Below, in pieces: positions 1 through 63,549 of a stretch of DNA of 64,000 bases. Source of the DNA: a virus. Taxonomy: Duplodnaviria; Caudoviricetes. How positions within the stretch are numbered: the stretch's first letter is position 1; the number at the start of each line of letters is the position of its first letter. A program made the position numbers and the translations under genes. The DNA is taken from IMG/VR virus record IMGVR_UViG_3300020190_000004; one strand, 5' to 3'. The notes under the pieces were generated by a model. It searched no databases, had not been told where the DNA came from, and saw nothing but the letters and a program-made list of their open reading frames with translations.

Positions 1-3000
1 GTCAACGAATGCAAATTCGCTGTTTATTCTTTTAAAGCGAATTTCAGTTGCCTTTGATTGCCAGCCTATGGCTGATGTTTCATCAGCATAATCTGCTTTA
101 GTTCCCTGAAAAATTCTATAGAAGTGATCTATGTTTCTTCTTGCAGCTGCTCTTCTATATGTAGTATTTACATTTGTGCCTGTTCCTTCAAAAGATGTAA
201 ATGACCCGGTTGCGCCTAAAGCAGCAAAGTCCGACTCATAGTTACTTATTGGAAGTACTTGTGCATATTGCGCAGATGTAAAAGCTGCAGTAAGTCCGGA
301 AGCTGGATTTCCTATAGCTCCTCTATTTTTTTGATATTTGTTATAGTATAAGACATAATTTAGAGCTTTAGGGTTATCTTCGCTCACTTCACCTCCCGAT
401 AAACCAGCTGTAACACCCGCAAGACTTGTGATATATGGCGATGATGCACCTGTTCTACCGTAAACCATTTCAGCAGTAACCACCTGAGTTAGGATTAGTT
501 TTTCTATATTTCCAGTTGCGGTATTTCCACCGGTTGTTCCTCCTCCGCCGTTTCCTCCTGTGTAACCGGTCCCGCTTGTTAGTTGTCTATCTATGCCATC
601 TTCATGTTCTTTGCTACCCATATGATCGGTAAACACCATGAATGTTCCGCCGGTGTTATCGCTCTTAGGTATGAAGTACTCGCGAAGAGGTGATTCATTT
701 TGGGCAGATTGCACAACTGTATTTACCTTTTTGTACGGTTCTGTTAATGACCCGGGTCTGCTAGAATCAGGATTCTTTTCTAGGAAAGTAAAGATTAACT
801 TAGGAGATTTTTGTCTATGCTCTTTAACTTTTTCATAAGAATAGTTTCCAAGACCGCCCGGTAAAGCACCACCTGTTGCGCCTTGGCCTGAAATCCCAAA
901 GCCTTCTCCATAAACAAAGTTATTTAATCTTAAGTTGGCGTCTCCACGTTCATCTGCTGTATTAATTAAGATAGCAATAGTAGCCCCTAAAACCATAGTA
1001 ATGCCTTTAACCGATCCGCTATCTCTATTCATTCCGCTCCACTCTGCAGCAAGAGCGCCAGCTGGGGCAGTATAGCCTGGGTATGTCTGAGGGCCACCGT
1101 TATTGAACTCGGTTGGGTGAGGGTACACAATTACCGCAAAATTGGTGGATGTTACAGTCCCAGACTTTGTAAAAGTTATTCTTGAATCAACTATTCGCCC
1201 TTCATCATCTGTTGTTAATTGCCATGAAGTTATTCCTGTTATTGGTGCAGTAAACTTAATGTAGTTTATTGGCGTTGCTACTAATAGAGTTGCGTTAGGC
1301 GGATATCCGTATCCATTTTGAGCAATAGAACGGCCATTTCTACTCCAAGCCTTTTCAGCAGCAACTTCCAATCTTATGTATTCTTTTTCCGTTGCATTTG
1401 CGTTTATCTTAGCAGCTGGAGAGTCGGCTGGAGTTTCGGGGTAAGATACCCCATAGTCAATTAAGCCATAAGCACCAGTTCCGCTGTAGTACGCGTATGC
1501 ATAAGATGTACCAGCGCCCGCGGTAGTACCTGGGTTGGTTTCTTTTGAAGTTGCTGGGGTGTATCGCAAGTAACCGGTGTCAGTGAATCTGTCTAATGAT
1601 GGGTACGCGTCAAGATCCCATCCTGCAGCGTTACCAACGGCAATGTTACCGTTTCTATCAAAAACAATTTTCATTTGGTTAAGAACATCTCGTGTTCCTA
1701 GTCCGCGTTGCTCCCACTGTTCATAAGCATAACCACCGTCGCGCCCTCTTGGAATCGTAACCAAACCAATTTCTCCGTACGGTGAAGATATGATTGCAGC
1801 AGCACCGTTATTTCCGCGTTCATAATCGTTATCGCCGTCAGTTCCTAAAACCCAGCGAGTTGTGTCACGATTATCTCCGTTATTGTTTCCGTCTGCTGCA
1901 GAAACGTCTCTGAAAATGTTAAACCCAATGTAAGAAGCCGCTTCCCACCAAGCATTAGCTGTTCCTCCGTGTCTGTAAGCACCGTTTACCGTGACAGCAG
2001 GATTGGTTGATGGCCAAGCTTCATTTGATGCTGCTCCTGCTGGCCAAGGAGCAAATGTACGTGTCGGGGAAAGAGATTCTCTTGTAGGATATACCGCAGC
2101 ATTGGGTGAAATAGAAACGAGAGAAGAACTTGATGTACTTGCTGTTAAACCAATAGTAAAGTATTGGTAATCGTATATTCCCACTGGGTATCTGTAAGTA
2201 TCTCCTATGTAATCAATAGCTACTTGGCTGGTTGATGGAGAATTTTGTGCAGTACTTCCATAGAAGGGGTATGTTCCAGAAATACCAGTTGCGCTTCCGC
2301 CAGCTATAGTATAGCCAGGCGTCCATAGTTCTTCACCAAATTCTGCTTCATTATATGCATTTTTACCGTATATGTGTAAACGAGTTCTAGGATATAAGTT
2401 ATGAATACCTACACCACTAATCGAACGGTTAGAATCTTCTAGTTCAGTAGAAGTGCTGTCAGTTGTGAGAGGGTGTATAGTTAATTGGAACTCATTTTTG
2501 TATGATCCCAAACTATTTTTACCGATAGGATTCTTTACTGGATCTGCGCCAGTGTAAATCACACCAGGTTGCGCACCAAATCTCAAAGTATTTACATATG
2601 TATCGCTGCCTCTCCAAGATTCTGTACGAATCGCGTTTCTTAAAAAGTTATACCCTGTCGATCCGGCTTGCTCTTGCATGTGGTTAACTACATCACCTGA
2701 TGCATAAGAAGTAGCAGGGTTGACATATTCTACGCTTTGTGATCTTAGATTACCTATCAGGATGTCTGTGTTATATTGATTATTTGAAGCCCCAAAGTCT
2801 CCACTAAATGCTGCAACTGTAAAAGTTTCGTTAGGCAAGTATGAGCTTAAACCTGTACCTACACCTAAATCATTCCAGGTAAAAGTTGGATCGTTTTCTC
2901 TTAAGTTTTCTTTAGCGTGTACATGTAGTCGCGCAGCAGGTTCAAGCGGGCCTAAGTCATTAACAGCGTCAGCGTCTCCTACGAAAGTACCTATACCGAT

Positions 3001-10900: not shown

Positions 10901-12523
10901 CCAGCTAAATTCGAGCGGTCTTTCTTTCCAACGAGGATCGTTTACCAAGTTACGAATGTAAGTACCTATTTTAGAAGAAGAGCGCAAATCAAAAGTTTTT
11001 ACGATTCTTGCTCCACTCATATAATCTTTTATAGTAGTCTCTAAATTAACCCACGGGATATAAGTATCAGGGTTAATTGGGTGATCAACTCTTAAAATTA
11101 CAAAATAGTCTGGTAGATTCTTTCTTAACCAGATAGGTGCTAAGAAGGTAAAGTTTTCATCGTAAAACTTGCTCTTAAGTTGCTCTACACCGTAATTGTA
11201 AAAGTTATCAAACTGCTGTGAATATGATTGTTTTGTGTTTAAGTACTGGTCATCGTATTCATGTAGGTCAAAAACAATGTCTGCGGGAGTTTGTCCTTTC
11301 TTAAAGAAATCGTACAAACTCTTTTGGTATGTGGAGTTAGGGTTAACCGCAAACTTTTTATAAGAAGCTTCTGATAGCTCTTGGTTTGCATCAAAAGAGT
11401 TTAACCAAATATCACCTTTTGAGTCAACTGTAAGTTTTACGTTTCCCGAAAGCTTAGGATTGGTCTTAAGTAAACCATAAGAAGATCTATCATCGTATAA
11501 CGGGTCAAGTATAGGGTAATCTATCGCAGCGTTATCTCTGCTAGGTCTAGCATAATCGTCCGGATAACCAAAGATATGAATCTCCTGGTAATCAGCATCA
11601 GTACTGTACGGAACAGAGGCGCTGACGTCGCCTGACTTAAAACCAAACGGCGGGGTTGATAAAAATGCATTTTGAGGATAGTTAACCGGATCATACGGAG
11701 CGGATTCGGGAGGTGGAGTAGCGTCAGACTTAAATATCAAAAAATTAATCTTTAAGTGAGCGTCATTTGCACCGTCATAGTCTATTCGAAAAGTAGCACC
11801 GTTAGTTTCTTCGTTTCCGTTTGTGGGTGTAATGCCTTGATGTTCTACTTTAGTCCAAAATGCTTTCTTTCTTGTTATGAATCCCGTTTCATCTCCATAG
11901 TTACCAGACCAGGTAGTTCCATCGAATGGGTTTGGATAAGTTATCTGGTATGTGTAAAGAACGTTGGCGTCAGTAGCTGAGTAGTCAGCTCTTGCTAAGT
12001 CGTCAGCCGGTGCTGCATTTATCTTAAAGTTTTGTCCGTCTTGCTCTACAAACACACCTAACTTTAAAACAGTGGAAACTGGGACAGGCGCCGAAAAAAG
12101 CGTTCCTGATGACGTCTCAACTACTATTACACCGGGTGCATATGAAATTACTTTAACAGGAGCGTCTGCGACGGTTAAGGACGGATCTAGGTCCCACCAG
12201 TTTCTAACAACAAGTTCTTCCGATACGCGATTAAATGAAGGCGTTTGATTATTTAGTGGAGATACATCAGAAAATGAAATGGTTTGCGTCAAAGCTGGAA
12301 AAACCAAAGGCGCAGTGCTGTCTACAACGATCTCAGCTCTTTGCTCAAATGTATACGCCTGGGGAAAACCTATTATGTATAAGTCTTCATTTGGTAATAT
12401 AGGACCAAACAGGGTAGCATCATTCCTAATTATTGATATGAATGTAGTAGTCTTACCTTGTAAAACTACCTCCCTCTCTACATCTATCTTATAGAAAGAT
12501 GGTATATTTGGTGTTATTGGCAT
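4934..12523 (-). CDS. Very large virion structural protein (tail/baseplate-associated), 2529 aa
   Basis: Intact 7.6 kb ORF, rich in beta-forming and Gly/Thr/Pro residues. TAATG-coupled to the upstream gene and located among tail genes. No specific family recognised. Confidence 0.6.
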   Translation of the reverse strand: MPITPNIPSFYKIDVEREVVLQGKTTTFISIIRNDATLFGPILPNEDLYIIGFPQAYTFEQRAEIVVDSTAPLVFPALTQTISFSDVSPLNNQTPSFNRVSEELVVRNWWDLDPSLTVADAPVKVISYAPGVIVVETSSGTLFSAPVPVSTVLKLGVFVEQDGQNFKINAAPADDLARADYSATDANVLYTYQITYPNPFDGTTWSGNYGDETGFITRKKAFWTKVEHQGITPTNGNEETNGATFRIDYDGANDAHLKINFLIFKSDATPPPESAPYDPVNYPQNAFLSTPPFGFKSGDVSASVPYSTDADYQEIHIFGYPDDYARPSRDNAAIDYPILDPLYDDRSSYGLLKTNPKLSGNVKLTVDSKGDIWLNSFDANQELSEASYKKFAVNPNSTYQKSLYDFFKKGQTPADIVFDLHEYDDQYLNTKQSYSQQFDNFYNYGVEQLKSKFYDENFTFLAPIWLRKNLPDYFVILRVDHPINPDTYIPWVNLETTIKDYMSGARIVKTFDLRSSSKIGTYIRNLVNDPRWKERPLEFSWDSSTPTYWSGAVYTEGTLSAKGELIHDYIEQDRLIKEFEDFVTGGFQRNNIISTNLLNLEFLFDDEEAPLYSINRYIGFYVTENQLAEFEIEPTVLGKISGQTPLPKPEVDGQPYSIKPFVQTNANGIQIPVHYYHNTAFVNNTSIVPSYQGEVLGKFPLPAMVDDPLRLFYVRDRDNIFKKVRKLTEVDYGSPLSPDYVRATQLELFDTQENISSYGGVADIVSQFPATLLDSGHAQLRLHLLDQFGTGCIANDEELIFEVKNYNNPDSSYTYYTQVTNFVAGTSLTLAYFIDQNVIQTTAPFTQLAPGLDVTISVTTTANLVVGQSLYIVQGGYYSVTAIPTASTVTIKNLGNPGNAAPATVIVAGKLTGSALGGIATYNLNPLDTYLSIDNYVKLNLVDFSTGYSLYDAWRIELDAPSIQKFILNGTNEVDAEYTPQYQQFRWRLQANGLGLQPGDAWDYPLLDPNGVDYVSNFSNEGRLDQVAKAIVKCVNSFGNLPVQAWSDGTEVYMRSNLLHEEGNSIQFKRVLQGNSYYANVGFYEVGNVDRGNELKVQTLQITPTTTSDTYDIEAKVLQEPDQITNTSYFVQVTRDNFSTNILIRLGINASTWALATSTGTPFIFNIPTKDEFFVDNSIPITFNLKKIPIGTTGQFIYTQTSSSEVQQYFVGGQKRLRNRARIEFLNGQNYYQNKKVIRKGNTTSGSPIVTIDSTGLYVGNPIIGSGIPNGAKIIDVNVGSVVMNVNSTETASGVKITAGELSILNDNKINQQWYQSLKSVFSRMKGWEVQGKYVYSLPYLDQPTYDAENYLSGFKNYKDYSIIQLDKYDQEFYYSNDNRIVAYKVYRPTFGIFSIFPIKEFDFDFLFSEYSYTPTLEILKYFFSEEALDNEYIELDLFNNYKVEQFNGAGSADTSSFDLDVEAYDVETDIWTMVESLQNVSGSSEFLFNTFYPLYDYDMVSGQPDGYPYLAPDPTNANTSLEVQSRAAGFRNFDRRYLVKLDPDTNESVVFYPEKFRVKYRQTGVSTAEKIVITNYNYENDKDVKLFNGFAGIQDITSLNDAQTIENLKQNGQFIEALTYQLLLSEYDRLRENFTKDWAVRSKTVPYINKWVQEGTDARDNYYRLDTSLGFGLSNLSPSSVVDFAEPSVLTHEFPYLDAIPQDYPKESLESSRSYFFEKLDTTVWRGRTWYDLITSNVENDWFSKYFSLGYPSEAFFGGNKIPKSRDERYTFFIYNTGTGKSQTLFRGAKIEITQYEAGPNITTSLSTPIPNSTDFEGYKFSAIARFLPYEPFTIEKPVDIEVLKNDKFKTITMIFSIKVKDYRTQSGHIDYALQYFANDVLKNSNQNQLKYDLAVGTLSSSMLRNFLPYDGTYTTYLNPYTPNAVMRPRQGFLGGGYIQLGDKKIGGLVDYTPTVSPEWNAPIPPGQNTKAQLFMNFNSVDPVTYQFSLLNEITTINNDYRVPDSPYPFIQDTSLTGSIWAKEFGYDGYEFNIHSVLYKQNSSSEIYTFWNFLDSQDRVDILTLSSISIGSAKKYSRFRTNITSTGVLLQSALASPAPTTIPGSVPSNSEVNETYFVNGGTDGFQSIKNYITFGNIQSLINTDSTLIEYYNVTDSGKVLAYDYRLNIINPDTLVKTNVLNTATDEDKPIEYQSTSIIGYNIVDTNGQEFITRHRGYYEPKTRDILSFWVREDDSFSSHFELDFLLSNTHINAKSSLSGLVRNYGINKVSTGGEVMVISTGSSYKSLYPLVGEVSVTNKDFNAFTSSWDKDFYRNYQTTNDFTEVYGIAEMQETKAFLASKAMNVPKKFDLHEYIDGVEYTFELVQPAAAIGVDALSSNNSAVQQGMPYSNRPKVIITVNIEEKLRRELLAGIDNPNNVDEFTRLTTLGISELTSLSTEELLNLKTQYINKNIINIYQVTDVTLYSLQQQGVELVNGDLTEVEKFRNGYRVDKDCVVTKLSDFKFQLTKTLNPAVPVGFTFSATVKRI

Positions 12524-34437: not shown

Positions 34438-34782
34438 TTAATCTAATTCAGGTAAAAAACCAAGGCTATTCATGCAATCTTGATCAAAGTATGCGCGTTG
34501 ATTTTTGGGATATTCATGAGTAAAAACTACTTTCTCGTCTTCAATAATTTCCAAGATGTAATTACCTTCACCAGTAGTTCCTACTTTAATCACCCACTCA
34601 TTCCCGTTTCTTCTTTCGTCTGCATAGTAAACTTGAACAAAATCAAAACGATTATCATCGTCTTCATCGGTAAGCTCTTCATTAAACTCGAAAGTTACAC
34701 CACCTAATTGTAGTGATTTTTGAATCTTAAAGTCCAAGTGCCCTTCATTCAAAAAGTTCTCAAATGTTTTAATGTGTTTCAT
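34438..34782 (-). CDS. Hypothetical protein with CTS-like leader (MKHIKTFENFLNE)
   Basis: Leader shared with about 11 other ORFs, followed by an acidic body. Confidence 0.7.
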   Translation of the reverse strand: MKHIKTFENFLNEGHLDFKIQKSLQLGGVTFEFNEELTDEDDDNRFDFVQVYYADERRNGNEWVIKVGTTGEGNYILEIIEDEKVVFTHEYPKNQRAYFDQDCMNSLGFLPELD

Positions 34783-34909: not shown

Positions 34910-36334
34910 TTATTTTTTCTTGGATTCTTTATTCTTTTCTCTATTCTTTTCGTCTTGTGCAGCATCTTGAAATGTATTACCACCCGAATTCCCTGTTTCG
35001 ATTGGTTGACCTTCAACAATCATAGTTTCTTTGGAAATTTTTGCAAGTTTTCCAATTTCGCCGTTTCGAATAACACCGCGGTTAACTTGACAGTTAATGA
35101 TGTTTTTCTTGTTTTCTATAAAACAGTCATTAAGCTTATTATCAATATGAAGCTCGCATTCAGAAATTTTACTAAAATCAACGGTATTTCCTTTTACAAA
35201 ATTACCGTCTTGTATCCTTGAGTTCTTAATTTTACAATCATAAAACCATGCTCTATGAATAACACCTTCAAGTTCGCAGTTAATAAATTCCATGTCAGTT
35301 AACTTGCAGTTACGCAACTTGGTGTCCTTTAATTGAAAACGTCCAATTTCTTTGTCATAATTAAAGGCGCCTTTCTTCATCTTTCCTGTAATTATAAGAT
35401 CAAATAGTTTTTCTCGAATGTTAACCCACATAGATTCCAGTACTTGTGGGTCTGCGTTCATATCAACCCCAACTTCTATTCCAGGAAACGCTTTTTGGAA
35501 AACTTCGTATTTAACAAAAGATTTATACACCTTTTCGTCAATGGCCGTCATTTTTTTAAAGTCCGCCTTTTCTTTGTCAGTAAATCCTTCAAAGTTTAAC
35601 GTATCATATAAATGAAGAATAAAGTAATCGACCAAGTCAAGAATTTTCTTTGTCGTCTTTTCATAATCTTTACCACCAAGGTAACGATATTCCAGATAAC
35701 CCTTTTCCGCCTTCAAGAAGTTAACTCCATAGTACTTTTCGTCAGCTGGAAGAGTTAGGGTGGCGCGACTAAATTCTTCTAATGTAGGAGAATAAAAAAG
35801 TACTCTGTTAGGTCTTAGAGACTTAATACTTCTAGCATAAACACTCCCTTCTCTTTTAGGAAAGATGTCATATATCTTTTTCTCATCAAAAGATAAGATA
35901 AACTTAGGTATGTTGATGTTAGGAATAGTAAAACGGGTAGGGACCGCATTTTCATCAATACTAATGTTTACGTGTATAGAACACCTTTCGTTAGTATAGC
36001 CATTACTGCTGATCCATTCAAAGACTTTAATTAAGACGTTGCGAGCATCTTTGTATTTCATCGGTCCAGTGACTAACTCACACATACTCTTACCACCTGA
36101 ATAATCAGGTTCTAGTTTAAATATGTCAGCAGTAGGAGCTACTGGAGAGTGATAAAGAGGCTTAGGTTCTGTTATAGAACTTAATGCAAGAGGCACTACT
36201 ACCCTTCTTTTTACAAATTTTGCGATGTCTTTAGCGGTTTCAAACACATCCATCGAGCTGTAAAACTCAAACTCGAATCCGCAACGGGCGCTGTCAAGAA
36301 CCTCAGTCTTAGTGTAATTCTTTTTAACCTTCAT
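34910..36334 (-). CDS. Putative amidoligase (COOH-NH2 ligase type 2) with C-terminal beta-helix-like repeats
   Basis: GFEFEF, LEPDYS, ELVTGP, CSIHVN, KYYGVN and YLEYRYLGG motifs. C-terminal 5-residue repeats (LRNCKLTDMEFINCEL, FYDCKIKNSRI). Start moved to MKVKK. Confidence 0.75.
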   Translation of the reverse strand: MKVKKNYTKTEVLDSARCGFEFEFYSSMDVFETAKDIAKFVKRRVVVPLALSSITEPKPLYHSPVAPTADIFKLEPDYSGGKSMCELVTGPMKYKDARNVLIKVFEWISSNGYTNERCSIHVNISIDENAVPTRFTIPNINIPKFILSFDEKKIYDIFPKREGSVYARSIKSLRPNRVLFYSPTLEEFSRATLTLPADEKYYGVNFLKAEKGYLEYRYLGGKDYEKTTKKILDLVDYFILHLYDTLNFEGFTDKEKADFKKMTAIDEKVYKSFVKYEVFQKAFPGIEVGVDMNADPQVLESMWVNIREKLFDLIITGKMKKGAFNYDKEIGRFQLKDTKLRNCKLTDMEFINCELEGVIHRAWFYDCKIKNSRIQDGNFVKGNTVDFSKISECELHIDNKLNDCFIENKKNIINCQVNRGVIRNGEIGKLAKISKETMIVEGQPIETGNSGGNTFQDAAQDEKNREKNKESKKK

Positions 36335-37520
36335 TTGGCAATGATAAGAAAATTTTGTCGTTGTGAACTCTATCAATCGAGACCATTACTGTGTCTCCAA
36401 CCGTAAAGTTCTTTTTCTTTGTTTTGATTTCTTTTTGAGAAATCATTCCGCAGATATCTTTTTGTAACTTAACCAATGTACCAAACGGCTGAATTGAAAT
36501 AACTTCACCACCCCGAATAGTTCCAAGATTTTTTTCTTTAAACTCTTCAAGTTCTAATCTTTTAGCCGTGGGATCTTCATCTGTAAGAATAATTTTCTTG
36601 TCAGGTGTGATCTCTTTGATCCAAAAAGTTAATTCATTTCCAGCCGTGATCTCACGGTCAGTAAACTTCTTCTTCATCTCTGGAGTCATTTTGCTTGTGT
36701 GCAATAGACCCGTGAATATCTCATCAAACTCAACGAATACACCGTACTTTGCAACTCCAGTAACGCTTCCGGTATACATTTTGTCGGTCTCTAACTCACT
36801 AATTTTGCTAGGCAATATCATACTCACATATTTCTTATACGAGAATACAAATGTATTACTTTCGCGTAAATAATCTTCTACAACGACAGGAATCTCTCTT
36901 CCTATCATACTGTCAAAATCTCTTACGATATTTGTAGCAGCGAGTGACCCTGGCAAAAATCCTTTGATACCCGCAACAAATATGATAAAACCGCCTCCAT
37001 TCTTTTCAAGAATCTTACCAATGTAAGCCGATGTTGGTTTAGCAATTTGCTTGACAAATTCACTTTTAATCTTTTCTTCCATCCCTCTTGAAATTGAAAC
37101 TTTAACGTAAGGTTCAACTTGCTCAACGGTGGCTTGTATTTCCTGGTTTAAGAAGTAGTTTTGCCCTTCTTCGGTACTCAAATACTCTGAAAAACCTTCA
37201 GAATCCATGTTAATTGTGTTTAAGTAGCCTTTTTCTCTTTTAAGATCTACTATCCCATCAATCAGCCCGCCTAGTATTACATGCACCTCATTCTTATTAG
37301 CTGCTCTAACAGCAATGATTCTCCTTGTCTCACCTTCTCTAAGTTCTTTACTTAAGATTTCTTGTCCAAGAATCATTTTCTCATAAAGATCTAGTGCGTA
37401 TGGTTCTAAGCAGTAATTCTTAGCACCATACTTTGCTAAGATTTCAGGATTAGGTTTTCTGCGTTTACCAGATTCGAGTCTGTCCCAATCAATTTCTTGT
37501 TTGTTTTTTTGTGTATTCAT
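36324..37520 (-). CDS. rpsA: Ribosomal protein S1-like, four S1 domains
   Basis: D2-like GGGFIIFVAGIKGFLPGSLA..VRD, D3-like YTGSVTGVAKYGVFVEF..GLLHTSKM, D4-like GEVISIQPFGTLVKL..GDTVMV, and a degenerate D1. Confidence 0.85.
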   Translation of the reverse strand: MNTQKNKQEIDWDRLESGKRRKPNPEILAKYGAKNYCLEPYALDLYEKMILGQEILSKELREGETRRIIAVRAANKNEVHVILGGLIDGIVDLKREKGYLNTINMDSEGFSEYLSTEEGQNYFLNQEIQATVEQVEPYVKVSISRGMEEKIKSEFVKQIAKPTSAYIGKILEKNGGGFIIFVAGIKGFLPGSLAATNIVRDFDSMIGREIPVVVEDYLRESNTFVFSYKKYVSMILPSKISELETDKMYTGSVTGVAKYGVFVEFDEIFTGLLHTSKMTPEMKKKFTDREITAGNELTFWIKEITPDKKIILTDEDPTAKRLELEEFKEKNLGTIRGGEVISIQPFGTLVKLQKDICGMISQKEIKTKKKNFTVGDTVMVSIDRVHNDKIFLSLPNEG

Positions 37521-37534
37521 TATTTTAGATTTTT

Positions 37535-37543
37535 GTATATATC
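37535..37543 (-). promoter_or_regulatory. Putative late promoter GATATATAC upstream of the S1 gene
   Basis: Exact motif copy in a 34-nt intergenic gap. Confidence 0.6.
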
Positions 37544-37554
37544 ATACAAGTTCT

Positions 37555-40500
37555 TTACGCAAAGTATGGTGCCACATAGCTATTTCCTAACAAAGCGTTC
37601 CTTTGTGCTGTGGCGACAAGCTGGTCAAGCCAGATGATGAATGGAAAGTTTTTTGTCGAAAGCCCTTCCCATGCAGGTAAGACTTCTTTTGGTTTCGATG
37701 GATGAATTTTTGTAAGCGCAATTCGAGTTGCTGGAAAAGCACACCCAAGAAGTATTACAGGAAAAGGTATGTTTTCGCTTGTAAACGAAGCAGCACCTTT
37801 TATGATAGGATCTACATAATCTTTTATTAACTTGGGGTTAAGTTCAAAAAATGGCCCTTCTGGTTTAGGAGGATCAGGTGTAACGAATTGAGATATGATT
37901 GATAAAAATGGAGATTTAAGATTAGAAGCAGCGTCTATAAGTGTACCTAAAACATCCAGCGCTGGAAATGCTATCGTCTCTAGCAAAGAAAACAAAAATG
38001 CTTTTATGTCCGGTCCTGATATTTGTTCAAGACTCACGCTAAACAATAGCTTTATGATATTCAAAATAACGGCAATCTTTGATGCAACAGCAGAAGTACC
38101 TAAGTTTTTGCATATTTGATTTATGTAACAGTTCGCAAACTCGTTAAAAGAAGATAAGAAATCTTTTAACGCCTTTTTTATGATAAAAAGAATTTTTGTC
38201 CCAGGGATTTCTATTTGTATAGGAAGACCAACTTTAGGCAATCTTACGGTAAATGATGCGATGAAGTTTTTTAAAGCTATCTTAATCTCTTTAAGAAGAG
38301 AAACACTTATATCGATAGGGATAACAAGAGGGGGTATTAAGTCCAAAAACAAGTTAATTCCAAGCTGAAATAATTCTTCAGCAGAAGGCAGCTGAACAGC
38401 AAAGTCAATAATTTTACTAAGTGCTTTTAGTATCAAGTCATCATTAAGACCCAGAATAATGTTGGGTATATTCTTAATTGCTTCCAAAGCAAGAGATATT
38501 CCAGGGTTAAGAGGGGGGATTGAAACGTTAGTATAACACGGCTCGGGCAAAGATACCAAGATATCTGCAGATGAAACAAAACCCAATTTCTCAGGGGTTA
38601 TATCTTTAATTGCATCTTCTATCTGCTTCTTTAAAAGATCTTTAACTAAATCTAATCTCTTCTTAGCCGCTTCTTCAGGACTTCCTAAATCTACTTCAGC
38701 TTCAAGTGCGTCAATCTTTGTGTCGAACTCAGAAAAGATTTCTATCGATGCAGCATACGATGTATTGGCTCTAACCAGTTCCTTTAATTTAGCAGTAACA
38801 TCAAAAGGGTTGTTTATACTTAATCCTATTTCTTTAAGAAGCTTCTTTGCTTTATCCGGAGCTGTCTTAAGAATACTCAACAAAGAATTAATAGTGTCAA
38901 GCATAGCAATCGCACTGGGAAGCTCCATCATCATGCCCTTTGAGTCACGCGGTATTTTTATTCCTGGTACATCAAGTCCATCCAAACTTGCAATTAAAAG
39001 CTCTATAATAGTTTTTAGTGACAACTTAATTGCTTCTACATTATCGCAGTTAGTAAACTTTAAAGCATTCTTAATTAAGTCTTTCATCCGCAAAGCAGTG
39101 GGGGAAAATCCTCCAAAGACAGGTGGGTCAGGTATAACTAGTTCATCTACAGATTTCTTAATCTTACCTTTTATGCTATCAATGACAGTTTTCGATGAAT
39201 CTGGTTTGTTTACATCAAGTCTTGTGGATCCTGTAAATAGGTTACCCGGAAATTGTGTAAGATTAATTTTTAATGTAGTATCAAGACCTGGTAATAACTC
39301 AAGAAGACTTTTTTCGTCAAACTCGGTAATTCCCAAAGAAGGATCCGGAATCTTACTAGGTCCTGTGAGAGTAACAGCAAAAATAGTTTGTTGCTTTTCA
39401 TCAATGAACATTACATAGACATTAGGAATGATCCCCCCTGCTGCGCCAATCCAAAACACAAAAGTACCAACTGATGTATGCAAAGTTAAGAGATGAACCC
39501 ACAAGAATGGCAGGGGAATGCTTATGACAGGGTCGGGTATTCCAAGTGCAAGTGAAGGGATAGGGGCCGGAACGGGTATCTGTAAAGCTACTGGGTAATA
39601 TCTAAATAATCTTTTATTTAAGAACATCAAGTCAGGTATCGGCATAAGACTTACTATCTGCATAATCTTGGTATATTCACGCCAATAACAATTCTTTTTG
39701 TAATCGGGGCAGCCATTGGATCCTTTAAGACCCAGAGGATCACTTCCTAAAAGATCTTTGCATTTCTTTTCAGTACCAGGTGAACTATCACCGCCTCCTG
39801 CCTTTTCTGCACATGCAGTAATAGCTTTTTTCTGCTCTTCTATACAAGTATTGCATTCTTCTATCGTCTTAACGAAAAAGTTTAGCTCTTTTTGTAATTT
39901 ATTAAGAAATCTGTTTGAAATGTCTAATTCATTTATAAACTTGTCAGGATTAAAAGATTCAAAATTTGATACGCTAATACTAGAAAAATCGGTAGAACTT
40001 ATCATATCATAAAAAGATAGCTTTGCTTCTAACCTTGCATAAAACCTAATTTTTTTTATGTAAGGCTTGGCATCAGAGCTAGTAAGTATTTGATTCGCTA
40101 AAGAGTTTATTTTACCTCTCGTAAGTTCTTCTAAATTTTCAATAAATGGAATAGCAATCGCTAGATCTACGTTGCAATTCTTTACAGAAGTTGGTACTTC
40201 TTGAACTATGGTAGAACCGTCGCCTGACTTGATTTCTACTGTAGACTTTGCACCTAAAGCATTTCCCTGATCATCATATTGTGGTTTAGGTCCTGTGTAT
40301 CCTTGTTCTTTCCATGTAAACAGGTCATCTATACGGTTAGGAGAATAGTATTTTCTCCAAAGTCCGTTTTCTAAAAAACCAGTCCTTGGTAGTCCCTCTC
40401 CTGGTACAAATGTATAGTTATCAACTTTAAGATAACCGTCAAAAATTGTGTCTTGCGCGCCATTTAAAGATTGCGCTAGCAAAAAGTCTAGCCTGCCTTT

Positions 40501-42141
40501 AATTTCGGGATTTGTAACAATCAGTTCAAGTGACTTGCCGTTATCTTTAAATCCTGTAAGATTAGATAAAGCATTTGTAGTTCTTTTTACTTTTTTTCGA
40601 GCCTTTTCTACATAATCTTCAAAATCATATGTATTAAATTCTGCAATGTCAAATTCATCTTTTATTTCAGCTTCAAGGCCAGCATTAAAGTTGTCTACGG
40701 AACTCTGAAAATCTTCTTGTAAAGAAATTAATGATTGATCCAAATCATTTTTTTGTGCATTCAAATTTTCTGTTTCTACGGCGGATAAATTAGTTGATAA
40801 CAGCTTTGCGGTAACATCCGCTAGCTGAGATTCTATAGACGACTTCTCTTTTGCTATCGCAATAAACGGCGGATTCAATAAGTTATTTGTGGTAGCTCTT
40901 TCTGATACATACTTGTGATTCAAGTCGTGTAAAAGAGCCACTTCTTTAAACGCATAGTATCTGTTTATAGCATTAACTTTTTTCTTACCACACTCATTCA
41001 TAATGTCTTGCGCTTTCTTTATACAAGCCATCATGTTTTTTATTTTATTTAGTTCATCTTCAGGATTAGGTAAACTTAAACCGTTGATTAAATCCTCTAC
41101 TTCTTTTATGTTTGCAAGAGGTATCTCTGGTTCAATGGGAACAACACAAGGTATCGCTTCTTCTACTTCATCAGTAGAAAATTTCTTGGTTTTTGAAGGT
41201 CTCTTTCCACACAAGTCCATTTTACCAACTTCTTTAAGATCTTTAACCAACGAATTGCCAACTTTTTTGTTTAAGTTTTTCTTAATCGCTTTAGCCGCTT
41301 TTAGATTGTCTTTATAGATTTTTTCTGCAATATCACCAAGGTTTTCTTCTATGTATAGATTAATTCCCTCCCTTTCCAATATCTCAAAAAACATATCTGC
41401 GTTAGTAGCTGCTAAAAGTTCTGTTAGAATAGCAATATCTTTAACCTCCTTTTTTGCTATTTCTTTTAATTCCTCTAACGACTTTCCAACAGAAGGCGTT
41501 AGTAGAGATTTTATCTTATCATTTTTAAGAGCATCAAGAGCTTTCTTAGGAGTACTGAAGTTTGTGTCGATAGCTGGCCCCCATGAAACTTCTTTTGTAG
41601 ATATTGCAAAACGCAAGTTTATTGAAACCGGTCCCATATTGATAGACTTGTTCAGCGTGATAGCCGGAACAGTCAGAGAAATCTTGACATCTTTCATTTT
41701 ACTAGTGTCAAGACCGGGAAGTACTTTACTTACATCAATCGTAGGATTGTCAGATAGATTATTTACTGAATTAGCAGCGGCTTGTATTTTTGAAGTATCT
41801 AAGGAAGCAAAGTCAATCGAAAAAACTTCTTTGGTTAAACTTACAATATCACTAATAGCACCACTCAAAGCTGAATTGATTGCTTCTAATAACTTTAAAA
41901 TGCGATCTTTGTCATTAGGGTTTTCTACTGCGGGCAGTGCTTTCTTTGCGAATGCCTTAATACAGTTATCTGCGTCATCTTGCGCACTGCCGTTAGCACT
42001 GCCGTTAGCACTGCCGTTAGCACTGCCGTTAGCATTCTTACCTGCGTTGGGGTCAAGAAGAGAACTTATTTCATTTAATACACTTTTGGCATCATCAGAT
42101 AGTTCATCGCAGCAGTCGCACCCTTTTTTTAATTCATCCAT
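37555..42141 (-). CDS. Large helical, Cys-clustered protein with hydrophobic C-terminal half, 1528 aa (tape-measure or spike-associated candidate)
   Basis: TAATG-coupled to the gp5-like gene. Lys/Glu-rich helical N-half, Cys clusters, and Pro/Ile/Leu-rich amphipathic C-half. Confidence 0.5.
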   Translation of the reverse strand: MDELKKGCDCCDELSDDAKSVLNEISSLLDPNAGKNANGSANGSANGSANGSAQDDADNCIKAFAKKALPAVENPNDKDRILKLLEAINSALSGAISDIVSLTKEVFSIDFASLDTSKIQAAANSVNNLSDNPTIDVSKVLPGLDTSKMKDVKISLTVPAITLNKSINMGPVSINLRFAISTKEVSWGPAIDTNFSTPKKALDALKNDKIKSLLTPSVGKSLEELKEIAKKEVKDIAILTELLAATNADMFFEILEREGINLYIEENLGDIAEKIYKDNLKAAKAIKKNLNKKVGNSLVKDLKEVGKMDLCGKRPSKTKKFSTDEVEEAIPCVVPIEPEIPLANIKEVEDLINGLSLPNPEDELNKIKNMMACIKKAQDIMNECGKKKVNAINRYYAFKEVALLHDLNHKYVSERATTNNLLNPPFIAIAKEKSSIESQLADVTAKLLSTNLSAVETENLNAQKNDLDQSLISLQEDFQSSVDNFNAGLEAEIKDEFDIAEFNTYDFEDYVEKARKKVKRTTNALSNLTGFKDNGKSLELIVTNPEIKGRLDFLLAQSLNGAQDTIFDGYLKVDNYTFVPGEGLPRTGFLENGLWRKYYSPNRIDDLFTWKEQGYTGPKPQYDDQGNALGAKSTVEIKSGDGSTIVQEVPTSVKNCNVDLAIAIPFIENLEELTRGKINSLANQILTSSDAKPYIKKIRFYARLEAKLSFYDMISSTDFSSISVSNFESFNPDKFINELDISNRFLNKLQKELNFFVKTIEECNTCIEEQKKAITACAEKAGGGDSSPGTEKKCKDLLGSDPLGLKGSNGCPDYKKNCYWREYTKIMQIVSLMPIPDLMFLNKRLFRYYPVALQIPVPAPIPSLALGIPDPVISIPLPFLWVHLLTLHTSVGTFVFWIGAAGGIIPNVYVMFIDEKQQTIFAVTLTGPSKIPDPSLGITEFDEKSLLELLPGLDTTLKINLTQFPGNLFTGSTRLDVNKPDSSKTVIDSIKGKIKKSVDELVIPDPPVFGGFSPTALRMKDLIKNALKFTNCDNVEAIKLSLKTIIELLIASLDGLDVPGIKIPRDSKGMMMELPSAIAMLDTINSLLSILKTAPDKAKKLLKEIGLSINNPFDVTAKLKELVRANTSYAASIEIFSEFDTKIDALEAEVDLGSPEEAAKKRLDLVKDLLKKQIEDAIKDITPEKLGFVSSADILVSLPEPCYTNVSIPPLNPGISLALEAIKNIPNIILGLNDDLILKALSKIIDFAVQLPSAEELFQLGINLFLDLIPPLVIPIDISVSLLKEIKIALKNFIASFTVRLPKVGLPIQIEIPGTKILFIIKKALKDFLSSFNEFANCYINQICKNLGTSAVASKIAVILNIIKLLFSVSLEQISGPDIKAFLFSLLETIAFPALDVLGTLIDAASNLKSPFLSIISQFVTPDPPKPEGPFFELNPKLIKDYVDPIIKGAASFTSENIPFPVILLGCAFPATRIALTKIHPSKPKEVLPAWEGLSTKNFPFIIWLDQLVATAQRNALLGNSYVAPYFA
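41984..42031. repeat. Perfect 12-bp tandem repeat x4 (GCACTGCCGTTA) encoding ANGS x4
   Basis: Read directly from the sequence. Confidence 0.95.
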
Positions 42142-45055: not shown

Positions 45056-45064
45056 GTATATATT
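45056..45064 (-). promoter_or_regulatory. Putative late promoter AATATATAC
   Basis: Fills most of a 13-nt intergenic gap before the ATG at 45051. Confidence 0.5.
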
Positions 45065-60699: not shown

Positions 60700-60708
60700 G
60701 TATATATC
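60700..60708 (-). promoter_or_regulatory. Putative late promoter GATATATAC
   Basis: Lies between the terminator and the ATG at 60696. Confidence 0.55.
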
Positions 60709-63496: not shown

Positions 63497-63517
63497 ATTG
63501 ATTATTTAATTATGGTA

Positions 63518-63549
63518 TAAAATTAACCAATAGTTTTGACTAATGCAAA
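63518..63549 (-). promoter_or_regulatory. Possible Bacteroidota sigma-A promoter TTTG-N20-TAATTTTA
   Basis: One mismatch to the TTTG / TAnnTTTG consensus at the correct spacing. A perfect TAACTTTG lies at 63567-63560. Confidence 0.3.

Follow-up and report, generated by a model that had tools for sequence, protein, structure and literature searches.

A shortened bS1-like protein encoded in the baseplate block of a giant uncultured lake-water phage

Results and discussion

This study concerns one gene in a 64,000-nucleotide (nt) stretch of viral DNA, called the window here, from the IMG/VR virus record IMGVR_UViG_3300020190_000004 (Duplodnaviria; Caudoviricetes). The gene, named the S1 gene below, is an intact open reading frame (ORF) at window positions 36324-37520 on the minus strand, with an ATG start and zero internal stops. 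Its product of 398 amino acids, P0001, appears to be a phage copy of the N-terminal anchor and the first four domains (D1-D4) of the bacterial ribosomal protein bS1. This assignment is well supported by the sequence and model comparisons given below. The source is a giant uncultured phage of lake water. The features of the gene are as follows, in window coordinates, with the evidence in brackets.

36324..37520, minus strand: coding sequence of the phage bS1-like protein P0001, 398 amino acids (ORF; Pfam S1; Foldseek; dN/dS)
37329..37520, minus strand: residues 1-64, N-terminal anchor with the IDW helix, a phage-specific loop with a short helix, and helix 42-50 (model and hhalign)
37095..37328, minus strand: residues 65-142, D1, an OB fold with a helical insertion at 97-125 (model and structural alignment)
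36837..37028, minus strand: residues 165-228, D2, with the GGF...GFLPGSLAA signature of bS1 D2 (alignment to E. coli bS1 D2)
36579..36782, minus strand: residues 247-314, D3, canonical RNA-binding S1 domain (Pfam S1 and S1_RRP5; PDB alignments to bS1 D3, D4 and D5)
36339..36521, minus strand: residues 334-394, D4, an S1 domain with a partly degenerate RNA-binding set (Pfam; VIA-align)

Identity and conservation of P0001

The Pfam S1 model (PF00575) matched P0001 at E 7e-21 in three stretches, the best of them at residues 331-393. The top NCBIfam matches were all rpsA models, at about 85 bits and below their own cut-offs of 368-918. Chains of bS1 were the best sequence matches in the PDB. The top one was the 591-amino-acid bS1 9zcd_A, and by our own comparison its D2 stretch is nearly the same as that of a gut Bacteroidales bS1 in L056. 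The AlphaFold2 model, for which 48 relatives were used (pLDDT 77.5), consists of short N-terminal helices at 12-16, 25-31 and 42-50, followed by four OB folds at 65-142 (D1), 166-227 (D2), 248-313 (D3) and 335-393 (D4). Foldseek ranked E. coli bS1 (9gut_B) first with E 2.4e-20, and structural alignment by VIA-align placed model residues 40-398 onto E. coli bS1 1-351 with D1-D4 in one-to-one order. Residues 45-233 of the model were superposed onto the ribosome-bound D1-D2 of E. coli (3-174) with Z 12.7. For D4 the partner was D4 of M. tuberculosis bS1 (Z 13.3, root mean square deviation 1.7 Å over 80 residues). At the profile level, hhalign found residues 5-386 of the family collinear with 6-361 of the gut Bacteroidales bS1 (597 amino acids, L056:2471-4264) at a probability of 98.3%, and family residues 127-299 were aligned to E. 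coli bS1 65-241. The copy of D1-D4 proposed in the preliminary description is thus borne out by Pfam, hhalign, the AlphaFold2 model and the mapping onto the E. coli protein.

At the usual RNA-binding positions of an S1 domain, D3 retains Y259, F262, H274, D307 and K309, which are read from the sequence and stand in invariant columns. D4 retains only a part of the set (F346, L349 and S361). D1 and D2 of P0001 are without the RNA-binding residues, as in bS1, and D2 of bS1 does not bind RNA. D2 is the most conserved part of the protein, with 79% mean identity to relatives and 38 of its 64 columns at 90% or more. The mean identities of D3 and D4 are 68% and 78%. Against L004, a relative of 92% identity, dN/dS was 0.043 overall, 0.01 in D2, 0.01 in D4 and 0.09 in D1. 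P0001 is under strong purifying selection. The family is a large one: 308 homologues were counted at E <=0.001 in 90% clusters, and nearly all of the 120 listed have a length of about 400 amino acids. An exhaustive search gave 111 representatives (50% identity clusters) at E <=1e-30, and the best 150 family representatives were all of 101-449 amino acids. No relative was found in the bacterial genomes scanned with the peptide patterns of the family, and megablast of the 6 kb around the S1 gene gave zero matches to GenBank phages. The best explanation is that the phage copy was captured long ago from a Bacteroidota host lineage and is now a separate phage family.

N-terminal anchor

The residues before D1 connect P0001 with the bS1 of Bacteroidia. 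W12 is invariant across the 48 relatives. In the hhalign alignment IDWDRLESG is paired with ENFDWDAFEKG of the Bacteroidales bS1, and FDW occurs in the closest relative, in the protein of the Lak phages and in distant family members. In Flavobacterium johnsoniae, residues 4-40 of bS1 form a helix-loop-helix on uS2 and uS8, and the aromatic helix FLANFNWHNF contacts uS8 (PMC13000457). Model residue 40/41 is paired with residue 1 of E. coli bS1, and helix 42-50 lies on E. coli residues 1-13. By the VIA-align superposition of 40-398 onto 1-351, helix 42-50 would correspond to the N-terminal helix of E. coli S1. A phmmer search of residues 1-75 alone against the PDB gave nothing meaningful; the N-terminal match is seen only by profile or collinear alignment, and by eye in distant members. 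The N-terminal 64 residues were also considered as a phage-only extension, and this was rejected since they can be aligned to the N-terminus of Bacteroidia bS1. The N-terminal alignment and the FDW motif together identify P0001 as a likely Bacteroidia-type anchor plus D1-D4. The retention of the parts that would dock on the 30S subunit, namely the anchor, D1 and D2, is supported by these comparisons.

Upstream box

A short sequence element stands close before the gene.

37535..37543, minus strand: GATATATAC box, candidate late-class promoter element, 14 nt before the ATG (seven window copies; conservation)

All seven window copies of GATATATAC are on the minus strand, which is the coding strand, whereas 0.50 copies were expected and the maximum in 100 shuffles was three. 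In the 83.7-kb contig, 9 of the 13 copies of the looser form [AG]ATATATAN stand no more than 60 nt upstream of a called start, which by chance holds for 5.6% of positions. Two further copies precede starts missed by the gene caller, according to our reading of the flanks. The copies are confined to the structural and cargo part of the contig, except one at contig position 518, with 92 nt between it and the next start. The box stands before baseplate genes and tagged cargo genes but not before the sugar/nucleotide block. Of 36 distinct relatives, 30 have the box 20-57 nt ahead of their S1 gene in spite of differing flanks. Therefore, by its position and conservation, the GATATATAC box is a genuine regulatory element associated with virion genes. 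The T4-type late box TATAAATA has four copies in the contig, of which zero lie within 60 nt upstream of a start, and [AG]ATATATAN stands in its place. Around the S1 gene there was no enrichment of sigma-70-type promoters or of intrinsic terminators. We infer that the GATATATAC box is a late promoter, and from its gene association that the S1 gene is expressed late.

Two other observations were made on upstream sequences. At window 60700-60708 and 45056-45064 (both minus strand) just 3-4 nt separate the end of the box from the ATG (GATATATACtatATG and AATATATACtaatATG). Should the box act as a -10-like promoter element, the mRNAs of the GATATATACtatATG and AATATATACtaatATG genes would be leaderless or nearly so. 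A second motif, TGGTTAATTTTATAC(C/T)ATAA, is found about 15-20 nt before two starts (window 63497-63541, minus strand, and contig G000 940-984), and it probably represents another promoter class.

Genomic slot and neighbours

The virus record of 83.7 kb is rated 30% complete, and relatives are on contigs of 202-318 kb. Window positions 1-373 fall outside the record, which covers the remainder of the window, and the genome evidently exceeds the record. The stretch is present in 24 lake-water DNA sequencing runs, and among the sequencing runs listed there were no RNA runs that carry it. No tRNA genes were found in the window.

The S1 gene was described earlier as part of a neck/baseplate block with a motif of its own, and this location holds. 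Upstream is a 277-amino-acid gpV/gp5-like hub gene. Downstream follow a 474-amino-acid gene, a 114-amino-acid tagged gene, a 243-amino-acid gene, a gp25-like gene and a baseplate-J gene. The T4 gp13-like label of the 243-amino-acid gene rests on the Pfam label of its orthologues in relatives. By tblastn of the neighbours in about 50 related loci, the same gene order was found as far as 37% S1 identity: hub, a partner whose size varies, S1, the 474-amino-acid gene, gp13-like, gp25-like, J, a 90-amino-acid gene and a giant protein. At 34-36% S1 identity, S1 stands directly before the gp25-like and J genes. The homologue of the Lak megaphages is surrounded by genes of tRNA and nucleotide metabolism; NAPRTase, Thg1-like, DnaB and RNA-ligase genes are among its neighbours. 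Since this neighbourhood is non-structural, the family is not tied to the baseplate, and the slot in the baseplate block is a trait of the present phage clade.

The distance from the stop of the preceding 1528-codon gene to the S1 ATG is 34 nt. On its other side the gene overlaps the next one, and no terminator-like site was seen between the two.

36324..36334, minus strand: overlap of 11 nt between the S1 stop region and the ATG of the next, 474-amino-acid gene (sequence and gene list)

The product of this next gene (window 34910-36334, minus strand) is weakly amidoligase-like (Pfam Amidoligase_2, E 3e-4) and includes a stretch of pentapeptide repeats. In the Atlas its nearest clusters are viral and 14-19% of their members have an amidoligase label, so that an enzyme appears to be encoded inside the baseplate block. 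In every relative down to 37% S1 identity the gene comes after S1, and its conservation (45-93%) exceeds that of S1. In Lak and in the most distant clade S1 has no such neighbour.

Some further observations belong to the neighbourhood. The gene between hub and S1 (window 37555-42141, minus strand) encodes 1528 amino acids here, 906 in L003 (7246-9966) and 195 in L002 (9376-9963), and the similarity of these intervening genes is weak, 23-34% where detectable. In L002, S1 and the 474-amino-acid gene are separated by an inserted 250-amino-acid gene (11226-11978) that weakly matches NUMOD3 (homing endonuclease). The 114-amino-acid ORF of the baseplate block (window 34438-34782, minus strand) begins with MKHIKTFENFLNE, a head-targeting-like tag common to many genes at 49.6-60.7 kb of the window. 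S1 was considered as a carrier of this tag of its neighbours. The candidate was rejected, as a tag of the MKxxKTFExFLNE type is absent from S1.

Translation signals and host type

Shine-Dalgarno (SD) enrichment was absent from the starts analysed: AGGAG preceded 0 of 85 starts and GGAG 1 of 85, against a background of 3.4. The leaders contain 45% A, compared with 33.5% for the strand, and A peaks at -12 (52%) and -13 (59%). The preliminary description was right that the leaders lack SD sequences. However, the A at -3 that it singled out is not special, for its frequency of 47% is within the general A-richness. The leader of the S1 gene itself has A at -3, -6, -12 and -13. TAATG stop-start junctions, of which eight had been claimed, do exist, but the count is six on the main strand plus three candidates on the other strand. 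The mRNAs of Bacteroidia hosts are SD-less and A-rich, and the initiation determinants of F. johnsoniae match these leader features (PMC13000457). The hosts of the phage are probably Bacteroidota.

Proposed role and alternatives

In our judgement the most probable role of P0001 is that of a spare bS1. The shortened protein would be made together with the virion genes. Its N-terminal helices and D1-D2 would attach to the host 30S subunit at the uS2/uS8 site used by host bS1, and D3-D4 would hold the A-rich, unstructured, SD-less leaders of the phage mRNAs. The phage would thereby supply or replace host bS1, which is loosely bound and easily limiting, during the bulk synthesis of structural proteins.

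The preliminary description went further and proposed that a late S1 could reprogram host ribosomes toward A/U-rich, SD-less structural mRNAs. This proposal found no footing, because the leaders of both gene blocks are the same (P = 0.39) and the host mRNAs are alike. The related idea that S1 selects late mRNAs by a leader type of their own was rejected on the same ground. Since the leaders of the phage and of the Bacteroidia hosts are alike, S1 cannot be seen to tell late phage mRNAs apart. We therefore favour a supply or replacement of host S1, which is also the more economical idea, over selective reprogramming.

Several points weigh against a bS1 that is active on the ribosome. P0001 reaches 85.4 bits where the cut-off of TIGR00717 is 577, and every curated rpsA cut-off is far from reached. 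The protein ends after D4, at residue 398, and D5, D6 and the C-terminal tail are absent. The anchor and D1, which would take part in the docking, are the least conserved parts (34-45% identity; D1 34%), and the anchor is split by an insertion of 10-17 residues in comparison with the Bacteroidales bS1. The conserved His is lost in D4. The leaders of non-structural and structural genes are indistinguishable (A 0.48 versus 0.45), and there is no visible basis for a selective effect. Four-domain S1 homologues of Gram-positive bacteria have also been reported not to act as ribosomal S1.

The alternative that survives best, although we consider it unlikely, is a helper protein that would bind RNA and act off the ribosome. 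P0001 would then be a chaperone or protector of mRNA, or a cofactor of a phage nuclease, a polymerase or the amidoligase-like enzyme, with D1-D2 bound to a phage protein. The canonical RNA-binding D3 fits such a role. So does the behaviour of host S1, which works off the ribosome in T4 RegB and Q-beta replicase (reviewed in PMC13157829). The S1 fragment of Q-beta replicase (4q7j_D) was superposed onto model residues 144-237 with Z 11.5. In these systems D1-D2 bind protein and the later domains bind RNA, which would be a possible use of P0001 as well; however, T4 and Q-beta borrow the S1 of the host, whereas the phage here encodes its own. The overlap of the S1 stop with the start of the 474-amino-acid gene, and the place of this gene as the follower of S1 down to 37% identity, would also suit a joint function. 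Al-Shayeb et al. leave "on or off the ribosome" open for the huge-phage proteins (PMC7162821). On the other hand, the Bacteroidia-specific motif of the 30S anchor is kept in very distant members, and neither Lak nor the most distant clade has the 474-amino-acid partner beside S1.

A dominant-negative S1 is still more doubtful. Without D5-D6 it would occupy the bS1 site and lower host translation or shift the choice of mRNA. Retention of the docking parts speaks for it, as do the partly degenerate D4 and the absence of D5, D6 and the tail from all of the 150 best representatives. However, the leaders of the phage and of its presumed host are alike, so a block would also hit the phage mRNAs, and late structural gene expression requires maximal translation.

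There is a slim chance that the fixed slot itself reflects the function and not co-timing alone. The small S1 would then be carried by the tail or baseplate, or paired with the amidoligase-like product, and would seize the bS1 site of Bacteroidia ribosomes and displace host bS1 at infection or at the late switch. If true, P0001 would serve a virion-delivered or enzyme-assisted takeover of the ribosome and would not be a spare part.

The least probable alternative is a plain virion component of the tail or baseplate, which would be structural or would be ejected along with the DNA and seize ribosomes as infection begins; its strictly fixed baseplate-block slot in about 50 contigs, down to 34% identity, and the upstream box shared with the structural genes speak for it, but the Lak homologue has a non-structural neighbourhood, the head-targeting-like tag is absent, the adjoining 474-amino-acid gene is weakly enzyme-like so that the block is not purely structural, and the Foldseek and VIA-align matches listed are nucleic-acid-binding OB/S1-type proteins led by bS1, with virion proteins absent from the list. 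No PHROG family, structural ones included, matched P0001 at E 0.01 or better, although a missing match is compatible with a virion role.

Known systems and significance

The preliminary description had mentioned S1 homologues in huge phages, and these are indeed in print together with the same idea on initiation. Al-Shayeb et al. (2020) reported possible rpS1 in huge phages, linked it to missing SD sites and proposed a role in initiation (PMC7162821). The huge-phage rpS1 proteins, which include that of the Lak phages of Prevotella, share with P0001 the multi-S1-domain phage protein, the SD-less genome and the same proposed role. Identity to the Lak protein is 33% over residues 10-314, and both proteins have the FDW anchor and the D2 signature. 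They differ in that P0001 has four domains, a fixed baseplate slot in a T4-related lake phage and the GATATATAC box, whereas in the Lak protein three OB domains are followed by an acidic tail. In Lak-B2 the S1-like protein (L054 11941-13050) is 369 amino acids long with an acidic Glu/Ala-rich tail after D3. Several ORFs near its gene need TAG to be read as a residue.

With the bS1 of Bacteroidia (F. johnsoniae; L056), P0001 has in common the FDW/FNW helix, the second helix, the order of D1-D4, the D2 motif GG[FM]...FLPGS and the full D3 set. It differs by an identity of only about 26%, by the insertion in its N-terminal loop and the helical one in D1, and by the missing D5, D6 and lysine-rich tail.

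Another comparison is offered by bS21. Chen et al. (2022) found in metatranscriptomes that lake phages of Bacteroidetes co-express bS21 late with structural genes (PMC9723584). Both cases involve a ribosomal protein of initiation encoded in a structural block, the same habitat and host phylum, and a proposed late substitution into ribosomes. However, bS21 is a different protein, and late expression was shown for it by metatranscriptomes, whereas it is predicted for P0001. A bS21 gene was not found in the contig or in five relatives up to 84% complete, all of which are incomplete records.

Phage S1 genes and their link to SD-less genomes are therefore already published. The present study adds the domain map, the conserved box and the conserved slot, and no new principle. 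In Bacteroidia translation begins without Shine-Dalgarno pairing, and it is there that bS1 is believed to be most important. A conserved phage family that consists of the anchor and D1-D4 only would be a natural tool to probe the role of bS1 on SD-blind ribosomes. The family may also help to find out if phages adjust ribosomes in late infection, as has been proposed for phage bS21.

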